Assembly: GCA_964583485.1 (NCBI GenBank)
Contig: CAZOVC010000002.1
Coordinates: 2,959-66,958, forward strand
Length of the DNA: 64,000 bases
DNA from: an uncultured Candidatus Saccharibacteria bacterium
Lineage (GTDB): Bacteria; Patescibacteriota; Minisyncoccia; Minisyncoccales; GWA2-38-27
Reading direction: 5' to 3'
Position numbers and translations under genes: made by a program. The notes beneath the pieces were generated by a model. The model made no database searches, was not told the DNA's origin, and was given only the letters and a program-made list of their open reading frames with translations. Shown here one piece after another: positions 3,803 through 55,443 of this stretch; position 1 is the stretch's first letter; each line of letters starts with the position of its first letter.

Positions 3803-3852
3803 AAAGTGTGCAAAACCGAGTTTTGCACACTCATTACGACGAATATGATTGT
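3803..3852. other. Copy 1 of a conserved 50-nt element carrying a perfect 10-bp inverted repeat (gtgtgcaaaa-ccgag-ttttgcacac); candidate operator or small RNA module
   Basis: 49 of 50 nt identical to 50778-50827. Intergenic, between the GT2-GtrA gene and the SWIM gene. Confidence 0.45.
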
Positions 3853-3951
3853 GAGGATTTTGGGGACGGTATCCCCTGCGAAGCATTGCGATAATAAAAA
3901 AGCCCAAATATAATTTTGTTCATAAATGGGCTTTAAAGAATAGAATCGAAT

Positions 3952-5364
3952 TTATTTCTTAAAAACAATGAATTTATAACCCAGAAAGTTCCAAACCATA
4001 GAAAACATAGTAGCAATTAACGCTCCAACAGTTGCCCAAATCTTGGGAGAAATTCCAGCTTGAGGACCAATTAAATTTACCGCCAAAGAAGCAATTCCCA
4101 CATTTATTACCAGCCCAATCGCGCTTATTATTAAAAATTGCAAAAACTCTGTTCCAGTTTTTTCAACCTTTATCTTTTTAAAGGTCCAGAATTTATTCCA
4201 AAGAAAACTGTTAATTATGGCTATTAAGAAAGAAACTCCTTTAAAAACTGGATAAAAAAGACCAGCAGTAATTCCGGTTAAAAGAATCTGTAAATTAAGC
4301 GCTCCCCAATCAATCAAAGTATTGGAAATTCCTACGGTTGCAAATTTTCCAGCCTGAAAAATAACTGGAACCTTTTTTCCTAAAACATAGGTAATATAAA
4401 GAGAAATTGCAGCTGCAATTGGAACAATAACTGCTAAAAATAAACCCCCACACCAAAAATTTGGTAGTGGGGGTAAACCCAGATAAAGTCCCCAGGTCCA
4501 AAAATCAAGTTCTAAGGTTTTTAAAATTGTAAAAGCCAGCCAGGCAACCATCTCGCCGATAATTAAAGCAGAAATCAAATCAGTTTTTCTCCAAGTAGCT
4601 GATTCTGCTTTTTCTTCTTTTTTCTCATACTTTCCCAAAATCAGATTCTGTTTGATTTTGAATGTCTCAAAAAGCATTTTAACCATACTTTTAAATTTTA
4701 CTTTGCTTTGCGCGTCATTTACCCAGGTTATGGGAATTTCTTTAATTTTATAGCCCAGTTTTTTTGCTATAACCAGAACTTCTGGATCAAATCCAAAATG
4801 GCGAATAAAGATTCTGGAAAAAATATCTTGAGCCGCTTTTTCTTTAAAACCTTTGAAACCGCATTGAGTATCTTTAATTTCCCAAAGGCCAATAATTATT
4901 TTTCTAACTAATTTAAAACCTCCTCCCAAAATTACTTTTCTTATCCAGGGTTGAGGCACAGACAGAACCGCTCCCTTAATATCTCTTGAGCCAATAACAA
5001 TATCATATCCTGCTTCAAATTCCGGCCACATTTTCTCAACCTGATCAATTGAAGTTGAATTATCAGCATCAGTAAAAATTCTATATTCTCCCTTGGCTTC
5101 AAATATCCCCTGTTTTACTCCAAAGCCCTTGCCCAGACGTTCTTTGAACTCAAGGACTTTTAAGTTTTCTATCTCCGGCATCAAATTCTTTACCTTCTCA
5201 ACCGTTCTGTCGCTTGAACCATCGCTTACTACAATAATTTCAGAAGTATATATTTGCTTTTTCAAATAATTATTGATTTCTCGCAAAGTTTTGGGCAATC
5301 TTTTTTCTTCATTATAAGCCGGAATAATGACTGAAAGATAGGTTTTTTGATTTTGATTATCCAT
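3952..5364 (-). CDS. Polyprenyl-phosphate glycosyltransferase: GT2 catalytic domain fused to a C-terminal GtrA-like membrane domain
   Basis: N-terminus IIPAYNEE...VVSDGSSD is a GT2 signature. C-terminus has several TM helices ending NSFLWNKFWTFKK, a GtrA motif. Carries an in-frame palindromic insert at 4441-4477. Confidence 0.7.
   Translation of the reverse strand: MDNQNQKTYLSVIIPAYNEEKRLPKTLREINNYLKKQIYTSEIIVVSDGSSDRTVEKVKNLMPEIENLKVLEFKERLGKGFGVKQGIFEAKGEYRIFTDADNSTSIDQVEKMWPEFEAGYDIVIGSRDIKGAVLSVPQPWIRKVILGGGFKLVRKIIIGLWEIKDTQCGFKGFKEKAAQDIFSRIFIRHFGFDPEVLVIAKKLGYKIKEIPITWVNDAQSKVKFKSMVKMLFETFKIKQNLILGKYEKKEEKAESATWRKTDLISALIIGEMVAWLAFTILKTLELDFWTWGLYLGLPPLPNFWCGGLFLAVIVPIAAAISLYITYVLGKKVPVIFQAGKFATVGISNTLIDWGALNLQILLTGITAGLFYPVFKGVSFLIAIINSFLWNKFWTFKKIKVEKTGTEFLQFLIISAIGLVINVGIASLAVNLIGPQAGISPKIWATVGALIATMFSMVWNFLGYKFIVFKK
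4441..4477. repeat. Copy A of a bulged palindromic element (taaacccccacaccaaaaatttggtagtgggggtaaa), inserted in frame inside the GT2-GtrA coding sequence; encodes LPPLPNFWCGGL
   Basis: Nearly identical to 14700-14736 and degenerately to 42911-42946. All copies keep the same single-base bulge asymmetry (CACACC versus GGTAGTG). Confidence 0.6.
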
Positions 5365-5415: not shown

Positions 5416-7173
5416 ATGTCTAATCGTCTCACAAATTTAATCGCCGGGCTCCTGCTTATTATGGTATTCTTGGTTTGCTTTTTCGGTATGAAGAATGATT
5501 CAGCCACAATGGATGAAATGTCTCATATCCCGGCTGGCTATTCTTATTTAACACAGAAAGATTTTCGGATTAACCCGGAGCATCCGCCATTGGTAAAAGA
5601 CTTAGCCGCTGTTCCGCTTCTATTTTTAGACCTAAATTTCCCAGAAGACCATACTTCCTGGACTCAAGGAACTAATGAACAATGGAACTTCGGTTCTCAA
5701 TTCTTATATTATTCAGGAAATAATCCTGATCAAATTTTGTTTTGGGCCAGAATCCCAATGATTCTGCTTTTAATATTTTTAGGCTGGTTCATATTTCGCT
5801 GGGCAAAAGAATTAGGAGGAAACAAAGTTGCTCTTTTGGTCTTAACCCTATTTTCCTTCTCCCCTACTTTTTTAGCCCATGGAAGATTGGTAACTACTGA
5901 CGTGGCTGCGACCTTGGGAGTAGTTATGGCTTCTTATTTCTGGATAAAATTTCTAAAAAGTCCCACAAAAAAGAATATAATCTTAGCCGGCCTGATATTT
6001 GGAGTATCAATGCTTTTAAAGTTTTCTTTAGTTCTGGTTGTTCCCCTCTTTGCTGTAATTACTATTGTTTATACTCTCTTAAGGAAAAAACCTCTCCTAA
6101 AATATATTGGTTTGGCTTTTTTAGCAGGGATAATTGGAATGGTTCTTATCTGGCCGGTTTATCAGTTTCATCTTTTAAATTATCCAGCTGAACGCCAATT
6201 GCAGGATTCTAAGATTATTTTATCTTCGGGGGGTATAAATACTATAGAAAGTATTTGCGTCTGGATGGCTGATAAACCCGGATTAAGACCTTATGCTCAT
6301 TACTTTTTAGGGCTTCTAATGGCCAGTCAAAGAGTATCCGGCGGCAACACTGTGTATTTTTTTAATGAAATTTCAAATAGGGGCTGGTGGTATTATTTCC
6401 CTGTTGTTTACCTTTTAAAAATTCCTTTAGCTTTTCATATTTTAACCTTGATTGCTCTTTTATATGTATTCTGGCTAATTATAATTAAAAGGCCTTTCTG
6501 GCAAAATGTTTTTCATAGAATAAAAGAATGGATAAAAAATCATTTTCCCGAATTTTCAATGTTGGTATTTTTGGCAATTTATTGGTTCACTTCCATAACC
6601 GGAGCTCTTAATATTGGAATAAGGCATATTTTGCCTGTTTTTCCTTTCACATATATTTTAGTTGGTTTAGGAATATCAAAATGGATAAAAAGAATATCCA
6701 GCGCATCCTGGAAAAAAATGGGAATTTCTCTTGTCTCTGCGCTTCTGGGCTTTTACATAATTTCTTCTCTTTTGATTTGGCCCCACTATCTAACCTATTT
6801 TAATGAAATTGCCAAGGGTTCTAAAAATGGGTACAAATATGCAGTGGATTCAAACTATGATTGGGGCCAGGACTTGAAAAGACTAAAAAAATGGGTGGAT
6901 GAAAATGAGATTGAGAAAATTTATCTTAGTTATTTTGGCGGAGGCAACCCTGAATATTATCTAAAGGAAAAATATGCTCCCTGGTGGGGTGACCGTAATA
7001 AAAAAGAACTTCCTCAAGGAAGTTATTTAGCAGTCTCTTTAACATTGCTTCAGGGAGGTAAGGGAAATCCTGCTCCCGGTTTTGACCAGCCAACCGGCTA
7101 TTATCGCTGGCTTGACGATTATGAGCCAATAACTAGAATTGGCAATTCAATATTTATTTATTATATTAATTAA
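5416..7173 (+). CDS. GT-C fold glycosyltransferase (ArnT/PMT/GT39-like, uses a polyprenyl-phosphate-sugar donor); integral membrane
   Basis: Many TM helices and an N-terminal DE motif (MDEMSHIPAGYSY). Divergent from the GT2-GtrA gene, so the pair looks like a donor-synthesis and transfer unit. Start chosen at the Met at 5416 to avoid overlapping the divergent gene. Confidence 0.6.
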   Translation: MSNRLTNLIAGLLLIMVFLVCFFGMKNDSATMDEMSHIPAGYSYLTQKDFRINPEHPPLVKDLAAVPLLFLDLNFPEDHTSWTQGTNEQWNFGSQFLYYSGNNPDQILFWARIPMILLLIFLGWFIFRWAKELGGNKVALLVLTLFSFSPTFLAHGRLVTTDVAATLGVVMASYFWIKFLKSPTKKNIILAGLIFGVSMLLKFSLVLVVPLFAVITIVYTLLRKKPLLKYIGLAFLAGIIGMVLIWPVYQFHLLNYPAERQLQDSKIILSSGGINTIESICVWMADKPGLRPYAHYFLGLLMASQRVSGGNTVYFFNEISNRGWWYYFPVVYLLKIPLAFHILTLIALLYVFWLIIIKRPFWQNVFHRIKEWIKNHFPEFSMLVFLAIYWFTSITGALNIGIRHILPVFPFTYILVGLGISKWIKRISSASWKKMGISLVSALLGFYIISSLLIWPHYLTYFNEIAKGSKNGYKYAVDSNYDWGQDLKRLKKWVDENEIEKIYLSYFGGGNPEYYLKEKYAPWWGDRNKKELPQGSYLAVSLTLLQGGKGNPAPGFDQPTGYYRWLDDYEPITRIGNSIFIYYIN

Positions 7174-7254: not shown

Positions 7255-8007
7255 TCAACGATTTTCAGGATAAATATAGATTTTTTTAAATCGCAAGTCA
7301 ACATATTCAAGATTCTCTCTATTTTCAAGAGAGATTTTTTCTTTCAGCAAAATACCAAACTCTTCTAATTGCCAGTCCAGGTCTTTTTCAGGATTAAAAT
7401 AGATACTCCAACCTTCCATAGTTTTAACATCTATTCTTTTTTCAGATTTTATCAGGATTTCCTCAATAGGAATCTTTAAATCACTTTTTAACACAGAATT
7501 TATTTTTAAAATCTGGTTTAACTGTTCTTTTTGAACAATGTCTTGCTCGCTTTTAATAATTAACATTTCAGAAGGTATCTCCGAAATCTTTTCAAAAATC
7601 ACTGCTTCTTTGTCAATAAAGAAATATTCTTCATTTTTAGAAAAAACAACAACTGGTTTTCTTTCTTCAATTTGAACTAATAAAACATCGGGAAGATCTC
7701 TTTTTATATCTATATTTGCAATTTGAGGATATTTTTCTAAAAGCATCCTATCTATTTCTTGCAAATCAGCCAGAAAAATATTCTTAGCATTATCGGAAAT
7801 GATAATTCTAATTTCTTCAGCAGAGGTTTTCTCGGCTCCCAAAACTGCTATATTTTTTATTTGAAAGACAGAAGAAAAAATAAAAAAATAAAATAAACCT
7901 GATAAAATAATAAAAAACAAAAGACCCAGCCCAAAAAACTTATTCTTAAAGATATTAAAAATGGACTTTTTCTTTTTTGTCCTGAATGATTTTTTATATT
8001 TCCTCAT
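7255..8007 (-). CDS. ftsQ: Cell division protein FtsQ/DivIB-like (TM helix plus POTRA domain)
   Basis: Basic N-terminus, a single TM helix, then FQIKNIAVLGAEKTSAEEI. Overlaps femAB by 4 nt. Confidence 0.5.
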   Translation of the reverse strand: MRKYKKSFRTKKKKSIFNIFKNKFFGLGLLFFIILSGLFYFFIFSSVFQIKNIAVLGAEKTSAEEIRIIISDNAKNIFLADLQEIDRMLLEKYPQIANIDIKRDLPDVLLVQIEERKPVVVFSKNEEYFFIDKEAVIFEKISEIPSEMLIIKSEQDIVQKEQLNQILKINSVLKSDLKIPIEEILIKSEKRIDVKTMEGWSIYFNPEKDLDWQLEEFGILLKEKISLENRENLEYVDLRFKKIYIYPENR

Positions 8008-9035
8008 AGACCTCTTTTGATTTTCCTTATTTTTTCAAATGGACGCGTTATTAAAATATACACCCTTGAAAGAGGCAGATCCTGAGTTTGAACATAATCC
8101 TTTCTATAGCCCCCAAAACCCTTTTTAAACAGGCTTAAACCGGCCCAGGCATGGTTTTTATTGCTATCAGGAGCAATACCCCAGAAATTATATCTTTGAC
8201 ATCCCCGCTTTTTAGCTTCTTTTATTGCCTCCCATTGCAAAAGATATGAAACTGGAATTTTGTTGTACTTTGATAAAGAAGCTCCATGATGATAAAACCC
8301 GATATTTTGCCAAAAAACAATAATAGCTGAAGAAACAATTTCATTCTTATATTTTCCTAAAAAGATCAAGATCTCATCATCCGGCAAAAAAGAGGAAAAT
8401 TGATTCTGAATATATTTTAAGGAAAAAGGCGTAAACTTATGGTGTTTTGCTGTAAAGCAATAAATTTCATTAAATTTTTTCAAGTCCTCAATGTTTTGGG
8501 TCTTTACTATTTCAATATCTATATTCTTTTCTGCCTGACGAATTAAATAACGAGCGGTCTTCCTCATATTCATCAAAAGTTCTTGTTCTGACCCTTTAAC
8601 ATCTAATTCCCATGTTGCTTCAGGATGAATATGAATAGGAGCATTTCTAAAACCCAGCTCTTCAAAAATCTTAATATTCTCTTCATTTCTTTCATAAATC
8701 GGCGCAATTCTAATAAAATGCGCCTTTTCCTGTTTAGCAATTTCTTTTAGTTTATTTGTAAGGTGACCGAGTGCCTTTTTGCTAAAAGTGACTCGGTCAC
8801 TTTTCGTAATTGGCCCATGAGGAACAAACAAAAAAGTTCCACGCTTTGCTTTTACTTTTATAACTAAAGCAACACTAATCAATTGTTCATTGTCATATAT
8901 TCCAAATCTCCAAATCTTCTCTCCTTCTCTTTTCTGAAATTCTCCCCAATTCCAAGAATCCAAAAACGTTTTCTCATCACATTTCAATAAAAACCCTTCC
9001 CAAACATCCTTATTATTTATTTCCTTTATTTCCAT
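8004..9035 (-). CDS. FemAB-family peptidoglycan-branch aminoacyltransferase (tRNA-dependent)
   Basis: 343-aa ORF recalled as matching the FemAB family. Sits in an overlapping operon with the DegT and ftsQ-like genes. Confidence 0.6.
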   Translation of the reverse strand: MEIKEINNKDVWEGFLLKCDEKTFLDSWNWGEFQKREGEKIWRFGIYDNEQLISVALVIKVKAKRGTFLFVPHGPITKSDRVTFSKKALGHLTNKLKEIAKQEKAHFIRIAPIYERNEENIKIFEELGFRNAPIHIHPEATWELDVKGSEQELLMNMRKTARYLIRQAEKNIDIEIVKTQNIEDLKKFNEIYCFTAKHHKFTPFSLKYIQNQFSSFLPDDEILIFLGKYKNEIVSSAIIVFWQNIGFYHHGASLSKYNKIPVSYLLQWEAIKEAKKRGCQRYNFWGIAPDSNKNHAWAGLSLFKKGFGGYRKDYVQTQDLPLSRVYILITRPFEKIRKIKRGL

Positions 9036-33361: not shown

Positions 33362-33433
33362 CCTTGCTTATTGGAGGGAGATGGAATCGAACCATCGACC
33401 TGTCGTCTAAGACGACCTGCTCTCCCAACTGAG
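33362..33433 (-). tRNA. tRNA gene, 72 nt; anticodon loop reads UCUUAGA, so anticodon UUA (candidate ochre-suppressor tRNA); identity needs confirmation
   Basis: The minus strand reads GGGGGGA-TA-GCTC-AGTTGGGA-GAGC-A-GGTCG-TCTTAGA-CGACA-GGTC-GATGG-TTCGATT-CCATC-TCCCTCC-A. The acceptor stem pairs 7/7 with one G-U, the D stem is GCTC/GAGC, and the T arm is GATGG/CCATC with a TTCGATT loop. Position 33 is C and 27:43 is G:A, both unusual, so the anticodon register is uncertain. Confidence 0.7.
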
Positions 33434-33468
33434 CTATCCCCCCGATTTAAGGTACTACTACTATTATT

Positions 33469-51611: not shown

Positions 51612-51682
51612 ATTTTTATTATATCAAAAAAGCGTCGAAATGGCGATTCTTTGTGGCCGATCGACCCCGAACAAAGTTCGAT

Positions 51683-51712
51683 GTCCTGGACGGGTACGGG
51701 TTTAGGACGCCA
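51683..51712. repeat. Direct repeat aaagttcgatgtcctggacgggtacggg (copy 1), recurring at 53822-53851; together with aggcctctcggtcg (51728 and 53749) it brackets the high-GC island
   Basis: 28 of 30 nt identical between the two copies. Both lie in GC-rich non-coding DNA. Confidence 0.45.
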
Positions 51713-51922
51713 TAGGCCTCTCGGTCGGTCTCGATACTGCGCTGACTCGTGCTGTCTGTCCTGAACAAAATCCGAACCTTTTTTCAAGAAAATCCCGACG
51801 CTGATTTTTGATAATTTTCGCTCGGGCGGGCAAAAAGGAAGGGGGTTGGGGGGAAGGAATTTTTGCCCGCCCTCGCTTTTCCGTTGCCGCCGAATTTCGT
51901 GCCAGCGAAGCTGGCGCGCCGC

Positions 51923-52159
51923 CTAAATATCAAAATAACTGTCAATTTCTTCTCTCACTTCTTTAATCAGTTTTTTCTTTTCATCTTTCAATTCAAATGC
52001 TTCTTTTACCAATTTTGTAATTTTATCAATAGAATTTTTGTCTAAAATTGGTATTTTAAAATCAAGAAGACGATTTGAAATTGTTGGTATTGTTGATTGA
52101 ATTACAGTGTACTTTTCGCTTTGGCATCCGGCGACTTCTTTTATTGTTGGACTAAAAGG
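51923..52159 (-). pseudogene. Start-less C-terminal gene fragment (about 78 codons, ...IKEVAGCQSEKYTVIQSTIPTISNRLLDFKIPILDKNSIDKITKLVKEAFELKDEKKKLIKEVREEIDSYFDI*); probable remnant of a gene truncated by the GC-rich insertion
   Basis: Hand-translated from the minus strand. Host-like AT-rich codon usage. The open frame runs into the 52154-52241 hairpin with no start codon. Confidence 0.3.
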
Positions 52160-52241
52160 GGTCAGGTACCTTTTTTACCTTTTTTAGGTCTTCCCCTAGG
52201 ATTTAATGTTGAGTTAAAATAAAAGGTACCTGACCCCTTTT
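52154..52241. other. Large perfect hairpin: 21-bp arms aaaaggggtcaggtacctttt / aaaaggtacctgacccctttt around a 46-nt loop
   Basis: Read from the sequence. Lies at the junction between host-like DNA and the GC-rich segment. Confidence 0.5.
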
Positions 52242-52598
52242 ATTTTACACATCGTTGAAGTTGAAGTAGGGCGCGTTCGAGAAATCGCCATCAGCGTCAG
52301 GTTAATTGCCTCCACTCATCCATGTCACCAGACCGCGAAGTTTACTGCCTTAAGGATTATATCTTTTTGGTCTTGTATTTTATTCGGCAGCATCCCGCTA
52401 AAAGCGGGAACCTGCGCTAAGCAGAGGCAAGCAGTATCTCCTCAGCACAACACGCTCTTAGAAACCGTAGTCGCTAAGACTCTGGTTGCTTTTCTCCTAA
52501 AGAGAGAGTTCGGCGACAGCAATCCGTAAACTACTATGCATTAGCCTAAGCTCATTTATAAGTATATTGAATTCTAAAAAAGAAGCAAGTTTTTGAGA

Positions 52599-52636
52599 TA
52601 AAAAAAGAGGGTTATCCGTGTTAGTATGGATAACCC
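52599..52636 (-). terminator. Rho-independent terminator on the minus strand (gggttatcc/ggataaccc then tcttttttta)
   Basis: Downstream of the 52709..53578 gene and its octamer repeats. Confidence 0.55.
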
Positions 52637-52652
52637 TTAAAATTTGTCGCGA

Positions 52653-52716
52653 ATTCAAGGATCAAGATACAAGAAGTCAAAAGACTCAAGAACTCAAGAC
52701 TTCGAGATTCAAGACT
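52653..52716. repeat. Eight tandem degenerate octamers (minus strand: agtcttga atctcgaa gtcttgag ttcttgag tcttttga cttcttgt atcttgat ccttgaat) starting at the stop codon of the 52709..53578 gene
   Basis: 8-nt periodicity with a conserved tcttga core. Lies in the 3'UTR before the terminator. Confidence 0.45.
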
Positions 52717-53578
52717 GCGGGACAAACCCAGAGACAGAACCGCAGAGGCCGTGCGGGCCGTCAATCCTGCGCGTGTCGAACCCGACCCTGCCGCCGTAGA
52801 AGCCGAAGGACGGAACGTGAGAAAAGTCGTCGAAAGCGCCAGGAGCATACTCATCTCCAGCACAGTCGATCCAAAGATCGTCATAGTGTTGGAGACGCTC
52901 GGGATGGGTTAGTAACATGCACCCGATCTCGAATGCGCCAAGTCCGAACTCATTGGCCGTAAAAACCTCACGAGCTCGACGGACACTGCGACCCCGATGA
53001 CGGAGACCGAACTGAGCTGCCACGACCAGAATGTCGTAGCCCTTCTGCTGGTCAGCCAGTACTTCAAGCTTTTTCGCCGTGCGTTCGTGCTGTCGGAGAT
53101 GTTTCGCTCCAAGCTGGCCTTCACGGTAGTTGCAGAACTTGCCCTTGCGCTGTTGCTTAATCAGCTCCAGCACCTTCTCGACCGCCTCATTGTAAGTCTT
53201 GGCGACCGACTGCCAGCGAGGAATGGCAAACCATCCTTCAGCATTGACTGGAAGCGGCTGGGAAGCCAAGTTCTCGTCAGCGTAACCGATGCCAGGGAAA
53301 AGTTCGCGCAAGCGGTTCGTCTGTTCGGTAATACCCTTAGGCTTGTAGCCTGACAGATAGCCGTAGCTTGACTCTACCTCTTCATCGGCGAATTGGTTGG
53401 ACACAACCAGCTCCTGTATCAGTTTCATAATCTCTCTCTTGAGTTCGTCGCCACGCTCATTTAGTCGTTGAGCGTAGTCTTCGTCCAGCCCCGAATCATT
53501 ATACGCGGCTTCAAAAATACTCGTTGCTTGCCGACCCTTTGGGTCTCTTGACGTGATCAATGTCGTAGACATCGTCAT
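52709..53578 (-). CDS. Hypothetical protein encoded on a high-GC (about 55%) island; likely horizontally acquired
   Basis: 289-aa ORF with RBS AGGAGGcg-ATG. Its GC-rich codon usage is sharply different from the rest of the window. Confidence 0.5.
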   Translation of the reverse strand: MTMSTTLITSRDPKGRQATSIFEAAYNDSGLDEDYAQRLNERGDELKREIMKLIQELVVSNQFADEEVESSYGYLSGYKPKGITEQTNRLRELFPGIGYADENLASQPLPVNAEGWFAIPRWQSVAKTYNEAVEKVLELIKQQRKGKFCNYREGQLGAKHLRQHERTAKKLEVLADQQKGYDILVVAAQFGLRHRGRSVRRAREVFTANEFGLGAFEIGCMLLTHPERLQHYDDLWIDCAGDEYAPGAFDDFSHVPSFGFYGGRVGFDTRRIDGPHGLCGSVSGFVPQS

Positions 53579-53969
53579 CGCCTCCTTTCTACCCTATAAT
53601 GTAGGGCTCTAAAGTAAACCTTATTTTCAAAGAACTTCACTATGTTATAATTATAGCAAACTGTCAAGAAAAGTCAAGGGTTTAGTAAAAAATTGGGATT
53701 TGAAATTCGATTAATAAAAAACTCGTAATTCGTTATTTCGTGTTTTTTTGAGGCCTCTCGGTCGCAAGAACCGAGCACCAGCCTGCTCTGGTGCTGCGAT
53801 TCGAACTGTCTCAAATTCGAATAAAGTTCGATGTCCTAGACGGGTATGGGGACATTTTTCTCGAACTTTTTCCAAAATATGAGGCGGATCGGTCTCTCGA
53901 ACCGCGCTCAAGGTAGCTGCGGGAACTGGAAAACGTTAGAAATTGTTTAATAGCAGATTCGCTGGCATT

Positions 53970-54470: not shown

Positions 54471-54680
54471 TTATTTTGGCGACTTACGACTTTTGTTTGT
54501 CGCCTTTTTTATTGATTCTTTTTTAAAAGCTTCACGCTCGATTAGGTCTGGCGCATAAACAGCCCTATAAAGATTAACTAATCTCGTGGCCTTATCCAGC
54601 GCCACTTGGTCAGAAAGTTCCTCGCCAAATCTCTTCTTATAAAGTTCCTTAAATTTTTCTAACGATTCTTTAGATATCAT
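54471..54680 (-). CDS. Hypothetical small protein
   Basis: 69-aa ORF. Confidence 0.3.
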   Translation of the reverse strand: MISKESLEKFKELYKKRFGEELSDQVALDKATRLVNLYRAVYAPDLIEREAFKKESIKKATNKSRKSPK

Positions 54681-54685
54681 CTTGA

Positions 54686-55216
54686 TTATTTTATTATTCC
54701 ATATCCCTCAGAAATCGGATCCTGAAAAAGAAAAAAGTGGGGAGGATAGAAAGTGAAAACCACAAAGGCCAATAGCAGTATTATCAACGATAAAAGAGAA
54801 ACGGTATTAAACCTTTGGGAGAACTCCGGCAACATCATAATCTTATAACTCACTATTTGGCCAATAACTACTGCCAAGATGAAAATCGAAATATCAATTG
54901 CCAAAAGGTTATAACCCAGCAGGGCCGTATAGGAATAAAAGAAAACAACTATCAATATGGGCATCAAATATATTCCCGAGGCCTTGGCGCAGAGAAAGTT
55001 ATTCGCCTTGCCCTTAAAAATTCGGCTCTCCAGCAGGGCCCAGATAAGAGCTGGGATTACGGCCAGCTTCAAATGCTCCCAGGTGCTTTCATTAACCGCT
55101 GAAAACGCTCCCGCGAGCCAAAACCTATTCAGCAAGTTAAAAGTGAAATGAAGCAAGCTCCCAGTCAAAGAAATGAAAACTATTCCCAATATCTCAAATT
55201 TAAAAACTCTGTTCAT
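54686..55216 (-). CDS. Hypothetical polytopic membrane protein
   Basis: 176 aa, 5 TM helices. Confidence 0.45.
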   Translation of the reverse strand: MNRVFKFEILGIVFISLTGSLLHFTFNLLNRFWLAGAFSAVNESTWEHLKLAVIPALIWALLESRIFKGKANNFLCAKASGIYLMPILIVVFFYSYTALLGYNLLAIDISIFILAVVIGQIVSYKIMMLPEFSQRFNTVSLLSLIILLLAFVVFTFYPPHFFLFQDPISEGYGIIK

Positions 55217-55233
55217 ATTTTTTTGTTACAATA

Positions 55234-55443
55234 CTATTTCTTTTCTTCTGGAGAAGATTTAATGATTTCTTCTATCTCCATCTCAGCTTTTTTGATTCTT
55301 CCCTCGCAAATAGTAATAAGCTCACGGGCACGTTTCACTTTGGCTGCCAGTTTGTCCACATCAACATTTCTCTCCTTTATATCTTCAAGAATACTTTGAA
55401 GCTCCTCGTAAGCTTCATCATAAGAGATTTGTTTTTCGTTCAT
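55234..55443 (-). CDS. xseB: Exodeoxyribonuclease VII small subunit
   Basis: 69-aa coiled-coil protein directly downstream of xseA. Confidence 0.7.
   Translation of the reverse strand: MNEKQISYDEAYEELQSILEDIKERNVDVDKLAAKVKRARELITICEGRIKKAEMEIEEIIKSSPEEKK

Follow-up and report, generated by a model that had tools for sequence, protein, structure and literature searches.

A GC-rich island in a Patescibacteria genome as the probable remnant of a diversity-generating retroelement

Why does a low-GC genome of the candidate phyla radiation (CPR) carry, around positions 51620-53950 of the 64-kb stretch of DNA analyzed here (hereafter the window), a GC-rich block with direct repeats at its edges, large hairpins, an orphan gene fragment and one gene of 289 amino acids? 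An initial annotation of the letters had proposed a small integrated element or an assembly chimera. In this study, we compared the locus with its relatives and found that the region is very likely derived from a diversity-generating retroelement (DGR), and probably represents a decayed CPR-type DGR carried on a 2.2-kb island. It is thus a known kind of element in a decayed state, an identity that the initial annotation had missed.

The target gene and the complete cassette in relatives

The 289-aa gene with an AGGAGG ribosome-binding site was confirmed on the minus strand (52709-53578, with AGGAGG at 53581-53586). Its protein has 2,842 homologues, the best 120 of which are mostly ~288 aa long and 48-100% identical to it. 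Relatives are encoded in 196 stretches of GTDB contigs (one genome per species), and nearly all of the 80 loci listed from these stretches belong to Patescibacteria. Alignment of the family revealed that the last ~45 residues form the sole hypervariable columns, the remainder being conserved; for example, the proteins P0022 and P0026 are identical at 278 of 288 positions, and all 10 differences fall at residues 247-276. The window protein is 53-84% identical to the family and is homologous to proteins whose C-terminal ~45 amino acids are an adenine-mutagenised variable region (VR). A structural model (pLDDT 73, moderate, and low within the VR) suggested a helical N-terminal part and a C-type-lectin-like C-terminal part, the VR being borne by this predicted fold. 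No match was obtained for the protein in Pfam (including PF03781), NCBIfam, PADLOC or PHROGs, or in a profile search of the PDB sequences. Downstream of one related target gene, in L027 (6996-7124, plus strand), there is a LOOT RNA (RF03000, 73.9 bits; gathering score 46.4).

The nature of the variation became evident from a second, template-like copy of the VR. In L001, a near-copy of the 3' end of the target gene lies downstream, and all 17 of the 17 differences between the two occur at adenines of the downstream copy. Such a template repeat (TR) of ~131 nt is close by in 37 of 79 non-redundant loci. Mismatches between TR and VR fall overwhelmingly at TR adenines throughout the family (20/20 in L027, 24/24 in L060 and 22/22 in L072), and the variable positions use AAC codons in the TR. 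This adenine specificity across the family is the signature of a DGR. The expected partners were also found: a reverse transcriptase (RT) with IGNLTSQLFAN...YTDDF motifs is encoded in 34 related loci, in 31 of them beside a TR, and a gene of ~115 aa lies between TR and RT on the opposite strand. In L022, the Pfam matches are RVT_1 (2e-24) and bAvd (PF22296, 8e-16). Retrons, group I/II introns, TnpB/IscB-type guide RNAs and gene-conversion cassettes were considered as well and were dropped, given the adenine-specific TR/VR differences and the Avd and RT neighbours.

In relatives, the complete cassette runs from the target gene with its VR to an octamer array, a conserved hairpin with a T-run, a promoter (TTTGnTATAAT), a leader of ~260 nt, a TR ending in CCGAAGTCTCTCC, a strong stem-loop, avd (convergent) and finally the RT gene. 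The leader-TR module is inverted and upstream of the target gene in ten loci, most of which have the RT on that side. The L001 cassette (6274-6645; CPR-type, with a complete TR) is found in a metagenome-assembled genome labelled Humimicrobiaceae, Actinomycetota. Of avd it retains the final 63 codons, and no RT lies within 5 kb of it; it represents a milder stage of decay than the window. Its adenine-only VR/TR differences next to no local RT suggest either recent activity or an RT acting in trans.

The corresponding parts of the window, all on the minus strand, are as follows:

53650-53677: promoter-like site TTGACT-16-TATAAT, preceded by TG (11 of 12 consensus positions)
52709-53578: DGR variable (target) protein gene, 289 aa, assigned by homology to the target family
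52712-52845: VR, the last ~45 codons, homologous to the TR and assigned by comparison with it
52653-52716: octamer array of about seven or eight units (NNCTTGAN), beginning at the stop codon
52600-52637: conserved hairpin AGGGTTATCC-loop-GGATAACCCT with a T-run, the target-gene terminator
52561-52566: -10 box TATACT of the leader/TR transcript, in a TATAAT/TATACT column block kept in 33 loci
52303-52554: structured leader RNA, ~250 nt, directly 5' of the TR, with 8 covarying helices and 90-98% identical to L001
52250-52302: TR stub, the first ~50 of ~131 nt, by homology to the L001 TR

The promoter region of the target gene is conserved in L001 and L007. The TR stub is identical to the L001 TR at 59 of 61 positions, over a stretch that starts ~10 nt upstream, in the leader. 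This homology ends at ~52250, where a 22-bp hairpin and a start-less fragment resembling a restriction-modification specificity subunit (S subunit) follow; the 3' part of the TR (~60%) and the stem-loop downstream of the TR are missing. In the 64-kb window there is no RT-like open reading frame (ORF) and no tblastn match to an RT, and the search for Avd gave no match (best E 0.14). Because 60% of the TR, the stem-loop, avd and the RT gene are gone, the cassette is unable to act as a donor.

The cassette seems frozen as a recipient, too. When the VR is compared with its own TR stub, 19 of 54 positions differ, and only 9 of these are TR adenines. None of the 37 sampled TRs could have written it, since each shows at least 15 non-adenine mismatches; the closest full-length match has 22, compared with 0 in the L001 control. 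Furthermore, the target gene, VR included, is identical in all five other contigs recovered, which come from other samples. As these contigs were retrieved by exact protein sequence, the identity of their VRs is weaker evidence than read mapping. The 90% cluster of the window protein holds only two start-site variants, and the protein P0002, from a sister strain whose XseA is 99% identical, has the same VR as the window although it is 84% identical overall, with its differences in the N-terminal half. Thus, the non-adenine mismatches to the TR stub, together with the identity in five contigs, indicate that the cassette is most likely a fossil. We consider it likely that the window copy is no longer diversified, and its target gene is most likely a frozen variant that is still expressed.

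The leader RNA and the elements beside the variable region

The initial annotation had pointed to structured DNA free of ORFs at 52270-52620. This description was borne out: the segment is conserved and structured on the minus strand, where it corresponds to the leader. We aligned the leader of the window with those of 32 other loci (33 TR-bearing loci in all). RNAalifold returned 58 base pairs, 46 of them with compensatory changes. In the pair cells of the alignment, 95.6% were paired, compared with 33-54% when the partners were slid. Compensatory cells numbered 340, as against 54-76 with slid partners, and values as good as these were never seen in 500 shuffles. The frequent G-U pairs indicate that the transcribed strand of the leader is that of the target gene. 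The single-sequence fold of the window leader was no better than that of shuffled sequences (z -0.97), and the evidence for the proposed structure is comparative only. No family of Rfam 15 matched the window leader, whether the gathering threshold or a cutoff of E<=10 was applied, and five related loci were equally without a match at E<=0.1. The octamer array has no Rfam match either.

The octamers were likewise confirmed: on the minus strand, they run from the stop codon in the 3' direction, over 52653-52716, with a period of 8. Defining an octamer chain as a run of at least four [CT]T[TC]G[AGT] motifs spaced 7-9 nt apart, we found such a chain after the stop codon in 52 of 81 distinct loci (seven motifs in the window), whereas the longest chain in 1,620 shuffles had 3. 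After the TR, 36 of 37 loci hold at most one octamer motif; hence the array adjoins the VR and not the TR. The terminator that had been proposed after the octamers corresponds to the hairpin and T-run at 52600-52637, and the hairpin sequence behind the array is conserved across loci (GGGTTATCC...GGATAACCC). This hairpin is a candidate for the inverted repeat that stands beside the VR and is absent after the TR, as expected of a DGR target site. By analogy, array and hairpin together may be the counterpart, with another geometry, of the hairpin/cruciform of the DGR of phage BPP-1. In L034, L051, L056, L063 and L070 there are two tandem target paralogues, each with its own octamer array and hairpin, which makes these multi-target cassettes. 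RNAduplex predicted only slightly stronger pairing between the octamer array and the cognate leader than with non-cognate leaders (-40.7 vs -39.0 kcal/mol; 57 of 5000 permutations), and the sites were scattered.

The array had been put forward as a candidate protein-binding or ncRNA element; both it and the ORF-free DNA are indeed conserved and functional-looking. It is possible, if rather doubtful, that the leader RNA and the CTTGA octamer array are undescribed functional parts of CPR-type DGRs, the leader scaffolding or controlling the Avd-RT complex and the array marking the recipient VR. Lone cassettes such as that of the window may keep both elements because they are still serviced in trans.

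The island, its modules and its base composition

The block was found to be an insertion, as the initial annotation had supposed for a small integrated element. The comparison with an empty site that it had recommended was possible in L093, a contig identified in a scan with the neighbouring bPH_2 protein (82% identical). There, the equivalent of the window up to 53917 ('...ccagttctcgcag') runs straight into the equivalent of 51751 onward ('cacgagtcagcgcag...'), and the island is therefore 51752-53916. A 4-nt microhomology, CAGC, is present at both joints, so its boundaries may shift by 3-4 nt. The features of the island and its edge other than the DGR parts are the following:

51752-53916, minus strand: whole island of 2,165 bp, as delimited by comparison with the L093 empty site
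53816-53916, minus strand: island-borne intergenic module, which holds direct-repeat copy 2 (53818-53850)
52153-52242, strand unassigned: perfect hairpin with 22-bp arms, 100% complementary (z = -5.7), abutting the TR break point
51923-52159, minus strand: start-less C-terminal fragment resembling, at profile level, an S subunit of type I restriction-modification (R-M) systems
51752-51922, minus strand: multicopy module with a C-rich-loop hairpin (G-rich on the plus strand), 91% identical to L011 3840-4015
51620-51751, minus strand: resident intergenic module outside the island, also in the empty site of L093

The direct repeat reported earlier is real, at 51673-51700 and 53823-53850, but the first position given for it (51683) was off by 10 nt. 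It can be extended to 33 nt at 91% identity (51668-51700 and 53818-53850), for which the chance expectation is none. The accompanying 14-mer AGGCCTCTCGGTCG is also present, at 51714 and 53751, and its order with respect to the direct repeat is reversed from one copy to the other. The resident module holds copy 1 of the direct repeat together with one 14-mer (51714-51727), and the second 14-mer (53751-53764) lies outside the island-borne module. The 33-nt repeat proved to be the common tail of two types of dispersed intergenic module, one copy being resident and the other island-borne. Further copies of the dispersed module were found in L001 (three in 11 kb; 4671-4790, 7400-7640 and 8400-8630), L007 (one, 5590-5710) and L093 (one, 838-990). 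The module is rich in TTCGA motifs, ends in a terminator-like hairpin and lies downstream of genes in several related genomes; no Rfam match was found for this family.

The island is mosaic in content: a DGR remnant, an S-subunit scrap and a multicopy module. The start-less fragment at 51923-52159 is AT-rich, as described before, and lies within the island. It has weak matches to the C-termini of type I R-M S subunits and MAD5 (E 7e-5 and 1e-3); the curated cutoffs were not reached, the C-terminal helix alone matching (NCBIfam MAD5, 21.8 bits vs 400; PADLOC Specificity_I, E 1.2e-3), and the fragment shows an apparent S-subunit resemblance, not family membership. The idea that the insertion had disrupted a resident gene finds no support, given the position of this fragment inside the island and the empty site, which has no such gene. 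The perfect hairpin placed at ~52154-52241 exists, although its arms are of 22 nt rather than 21 (52153-52174 and 52221-52242). No copy of it was found in any other locus, Rfam gave only spurious sub-threshold plastid and miRNA matches, and it may be a deletion or insertion scar or a terminator. The hairpin with a G-rich loop lies at 51824-51872, with perfect 13-nt arms (51824-51836 and 51860-51872). The multicopy module to which it belongs (in the window and in L011 at 1-55, 3840-4015 and ~4170-4240) has a 13- to 16-bp stem and a 23-nt C-rich loop, and the contigs L090 and L011 end or diverge inside it, as expected for a repeat that breaks assemblies.

With regard to base composition, a GC content above 50% (0.50-0.58) holds for ~52600-53500, which is the gene, and not for the remainder of 51620-53950, where it is 0.35-0.47 outside the gene, with an AT-rich core at 51850-52300. 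The target gene exceeds its flanks in GC content in 74 of 75 family loci (0.58 vs 0.42). In 24 of 24 complete cassettes, its core outside the VR (GC 0.58; GC at third codon positions, GC3, 0.73) surpasses in GC the accompanying RT gene, whose composition is host-like (GC 0.40, GC3 0.44). Therefore, the GC jump, which had been read as a mark of foreign origin, is a trait of the target-gene family and no evidence of recent transfer. Adenine-specific depletion could be ruled out as the cause, because at third codon positions of the target gene A and T are both depleted. A target gene with a GC3 of 0.73 beside a host-like RT gene in ~40%-GC genomes is an anomaly that, if it holds up, could interest DGR researchers.

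The host is a CPR bacterium, whose XseA is 85% identical to a Nealsonbacteria protein. The XseA relatives L106-L109 have another gene order after xseB and so offered no further empty or occupied sites. The order of genes after xseB in the window (54471-55443) is unlike that in L106 (3355-5641), although the L106 XseA is 93% identical; the DGR island therefore lies in a variable genomic region. Elsewhere in the window, the sole tRNA in the 64 kb (33372-33443, minus strand; Rfam tRNA 55.6 bits) was given the anticodon TTA by ARAGORN ('tRNA-Stop', which would read UAA). In its anticodon loop, tCTTAga, position 33 is occupied by C and not by U, and the molecule could be a suppressor or odd tRNA.

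Alternative explanations and comparison with known systems

The local jump in GC would be expected if the assembly had joined a low-GC genome to DNA of a high-GC organism, as a chimera or contaminant. However, four other metagenome assemblies yielded contigs that agree with the window at 100% identity wherever they cover it: L087, L088 and L089 cross both island ends, and L091 lies within the island. The fifth other contig, L090, differs only in its last 50 nt, at the contig end inside the multicopy hairpin module. Because independent assemblies agree over the island ends, and the gene is GC-rich in its family at large, we regard a chimera as extremely improbable. A different account takes the island for a self-mobile integrative element, with the 33-nt repeats as attachment (att) sites and tRNA-Gln-like targets. 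An empty site does exist, and the repeats bracket the island. In addition, L092 and L093 break at the left joint '...cccgcag' just as the window does. In L001, tRNA-Gln ends with these seven bases, and the module of 53816-53916 comes directly after it, followed by the same promoter, target gene and cassette. But the 2.2-kb island contains no integrase, recombinase or other mobility gene (the ORF list shows the 289-aa gene only), its joints fall at the CAGC, outside the repeats, and its content is mosaic. The repeats themselves, which had been taken for classical att sites, belong to the dispersed module family, of which 11 kb of L001 contain at least three copies. A self-mobile element is therefore quite unlikely, and recombination via shared short sequences is, we infer, the likelier route.

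A complete DGR elsewhere in the genome might also rewrite the window VR in trans, so that the gene would be a live remote target and the leader and TR stub mere debris. Such remote targets are acknowledged in the literature (PMC8144416), the octamer array, hairpin and ORF of the window are intact, and the adenine-only VR and TR of L001, without an RT within 5 kb, would fit the same arrangement. On the other hand, the VR shared by the contigs of five other samples (bearing in mind how these were retrieved) and by P0002 despite its differing N-terminus, the two start-site variants that make up the 90% cluster, and the non-adenine mismatches to every sampled TR all argue against ongoing rewriting. 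We therefore consider a live remote target unlikely, if less so than self-mobility. A decayed CPR-type DGR remains the preferred reading, and several points that weigh against it should be set beside it. Only 64 kb of the genome is visible, and the RT, avd and a full TR may lie elsewhere. Lone target genes with array and hairpin preserved account for about half of the family (22 of 49 loci with at least 3 kb on both sides), and targeting in trans would fit these as well as decay does. Every residue that is invariant in the family is preserved in the intact ORF of the window; hence, 'fossil' refers to the diversification machinery, not to the gene. Finally, that the window gained the island, rather than L093 losing it by a precise deletion, is suggested by parsimony among three related contigs.

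The reading as a decayed DGR is, in outline, the following. In an intact element, as the relatives show, a transcript of the ~260-nt leader and the 131-nt TR is reverse-transcribed by an Avd-RT complex with errors at adenines, and the cDNA overwrites the last ~45 codons (the VR) of the gene for the C-type-lectin-fold protein; the octamer array and hairpin beside the VR would tell recipient from donor. Still present in the window are the target gene and the leader, each with a promoter, as well as the octamer array, the hairpin and ~50 nt of the TR. The remaining TR sequence, the stem-loop, avd and the RT gene have gone, the 22-bp-arm hairpin and the S-subunit scrap now standing in their place. 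The block, whose insertion is documented by the empty site, probably arrived by recombination at a '...CCCGCAG' site resembling the 3' end of tRNA-Gln.

These results turn a puzzling GC island into a DGR relic in a sound assembly, its GC content being a family trait and not a mark of transfer. With lone genes at roughly half of its loci, the protein family is probably undercounted in surveys that start from the RT. If it holds up, a large covarying leader before the TR would be of interest to DGR researchers, and an octamer array beside the VR, not the TR, is a candidate recognition element for cDNA integration, a step of DGR function that is still poorly understood.

DGRs of CPR bacteria (RT clade 2, PMC8144416; architecture B3, PMC5758913) and targets without domains have already been described. 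The window belongs to the same host group, and its complete relatives share the target, TR, avd and RT with these systems. Also common to both are TR/VR mismatches confined to TR adenines, target proteins in which neither domains nor transmembrane segments are recognisable, and an almost entirely cellular, not viral, distribution (4 matches in IMG/VR). The window copy differs in having no RT, no avd and ~60% less of the TR. A further difference lies in the covarying leader of ~260 nt and in the octamer array on the VR side: neither is described or mentioned in the literature searched, although an earlier account elsewhere is possible. With the C-type-lectin-fold DGR proteins (Mtd; TvpA, 2y3c) and FGE-sulfatase-like domains, the 289-aa protein shares no match at the sequence level.

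The comparison with the DGR of BPP-1 (mtd-VR/IMH-hairpin, avd, TR, Sp, brt) showed the same placement of the VR at the 3' end of a C-type-lectin-fold gene, and the same distinction of donor from recipient 3' of the repeat, with an inverted repeat downstream of the VR. Efficient retrohoming in BPP-1 depends on a hairpin located 4-34 bp downstream of the VR, and hairpins of this type have a 7-10-bp stem and a GRNA tetraloop (PMC3240598); here, the stem is of 10 bp, the loop of 9-12 nt, and the hairpin is ~70 nt off, behind the octamer array. The position of avd in BPP-1 is between VR and TR, and of the sequence upstream of its TR no more than ~20-40 nt matter; here, the TR is preceded by a structured leader of 260 nt and a dedicated promoter, and avd is on the opposite strand. 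DGR RNA elements analyzed so far comprise the spacer and stem-loop downstream of the TR and 40 nt upstream of it (10.1101/2023.10.23.563531), and the stem-loop just downstream of the TR in the relatives of the window resembles the Avd-binding stem-loop of Handa et al. (10.1101/2023.10.23.563531). The RT-10 RNA motif (Weinberg et al., 2017, PMC5737381) is, like the leader, a structured RNA within a DGR template transcript, but it lies between TR and RT, whereas the leader is 5' of the TR. Finally, the island resembles tRNA-associated genomic islands in its neighbouring tRNA-3'-end-like sequence, its direct repeats and its empty site, and differs from them in its size of 2.2 kb, in carrying no integrase and in repeats that are dispersed modules rather than an att core.

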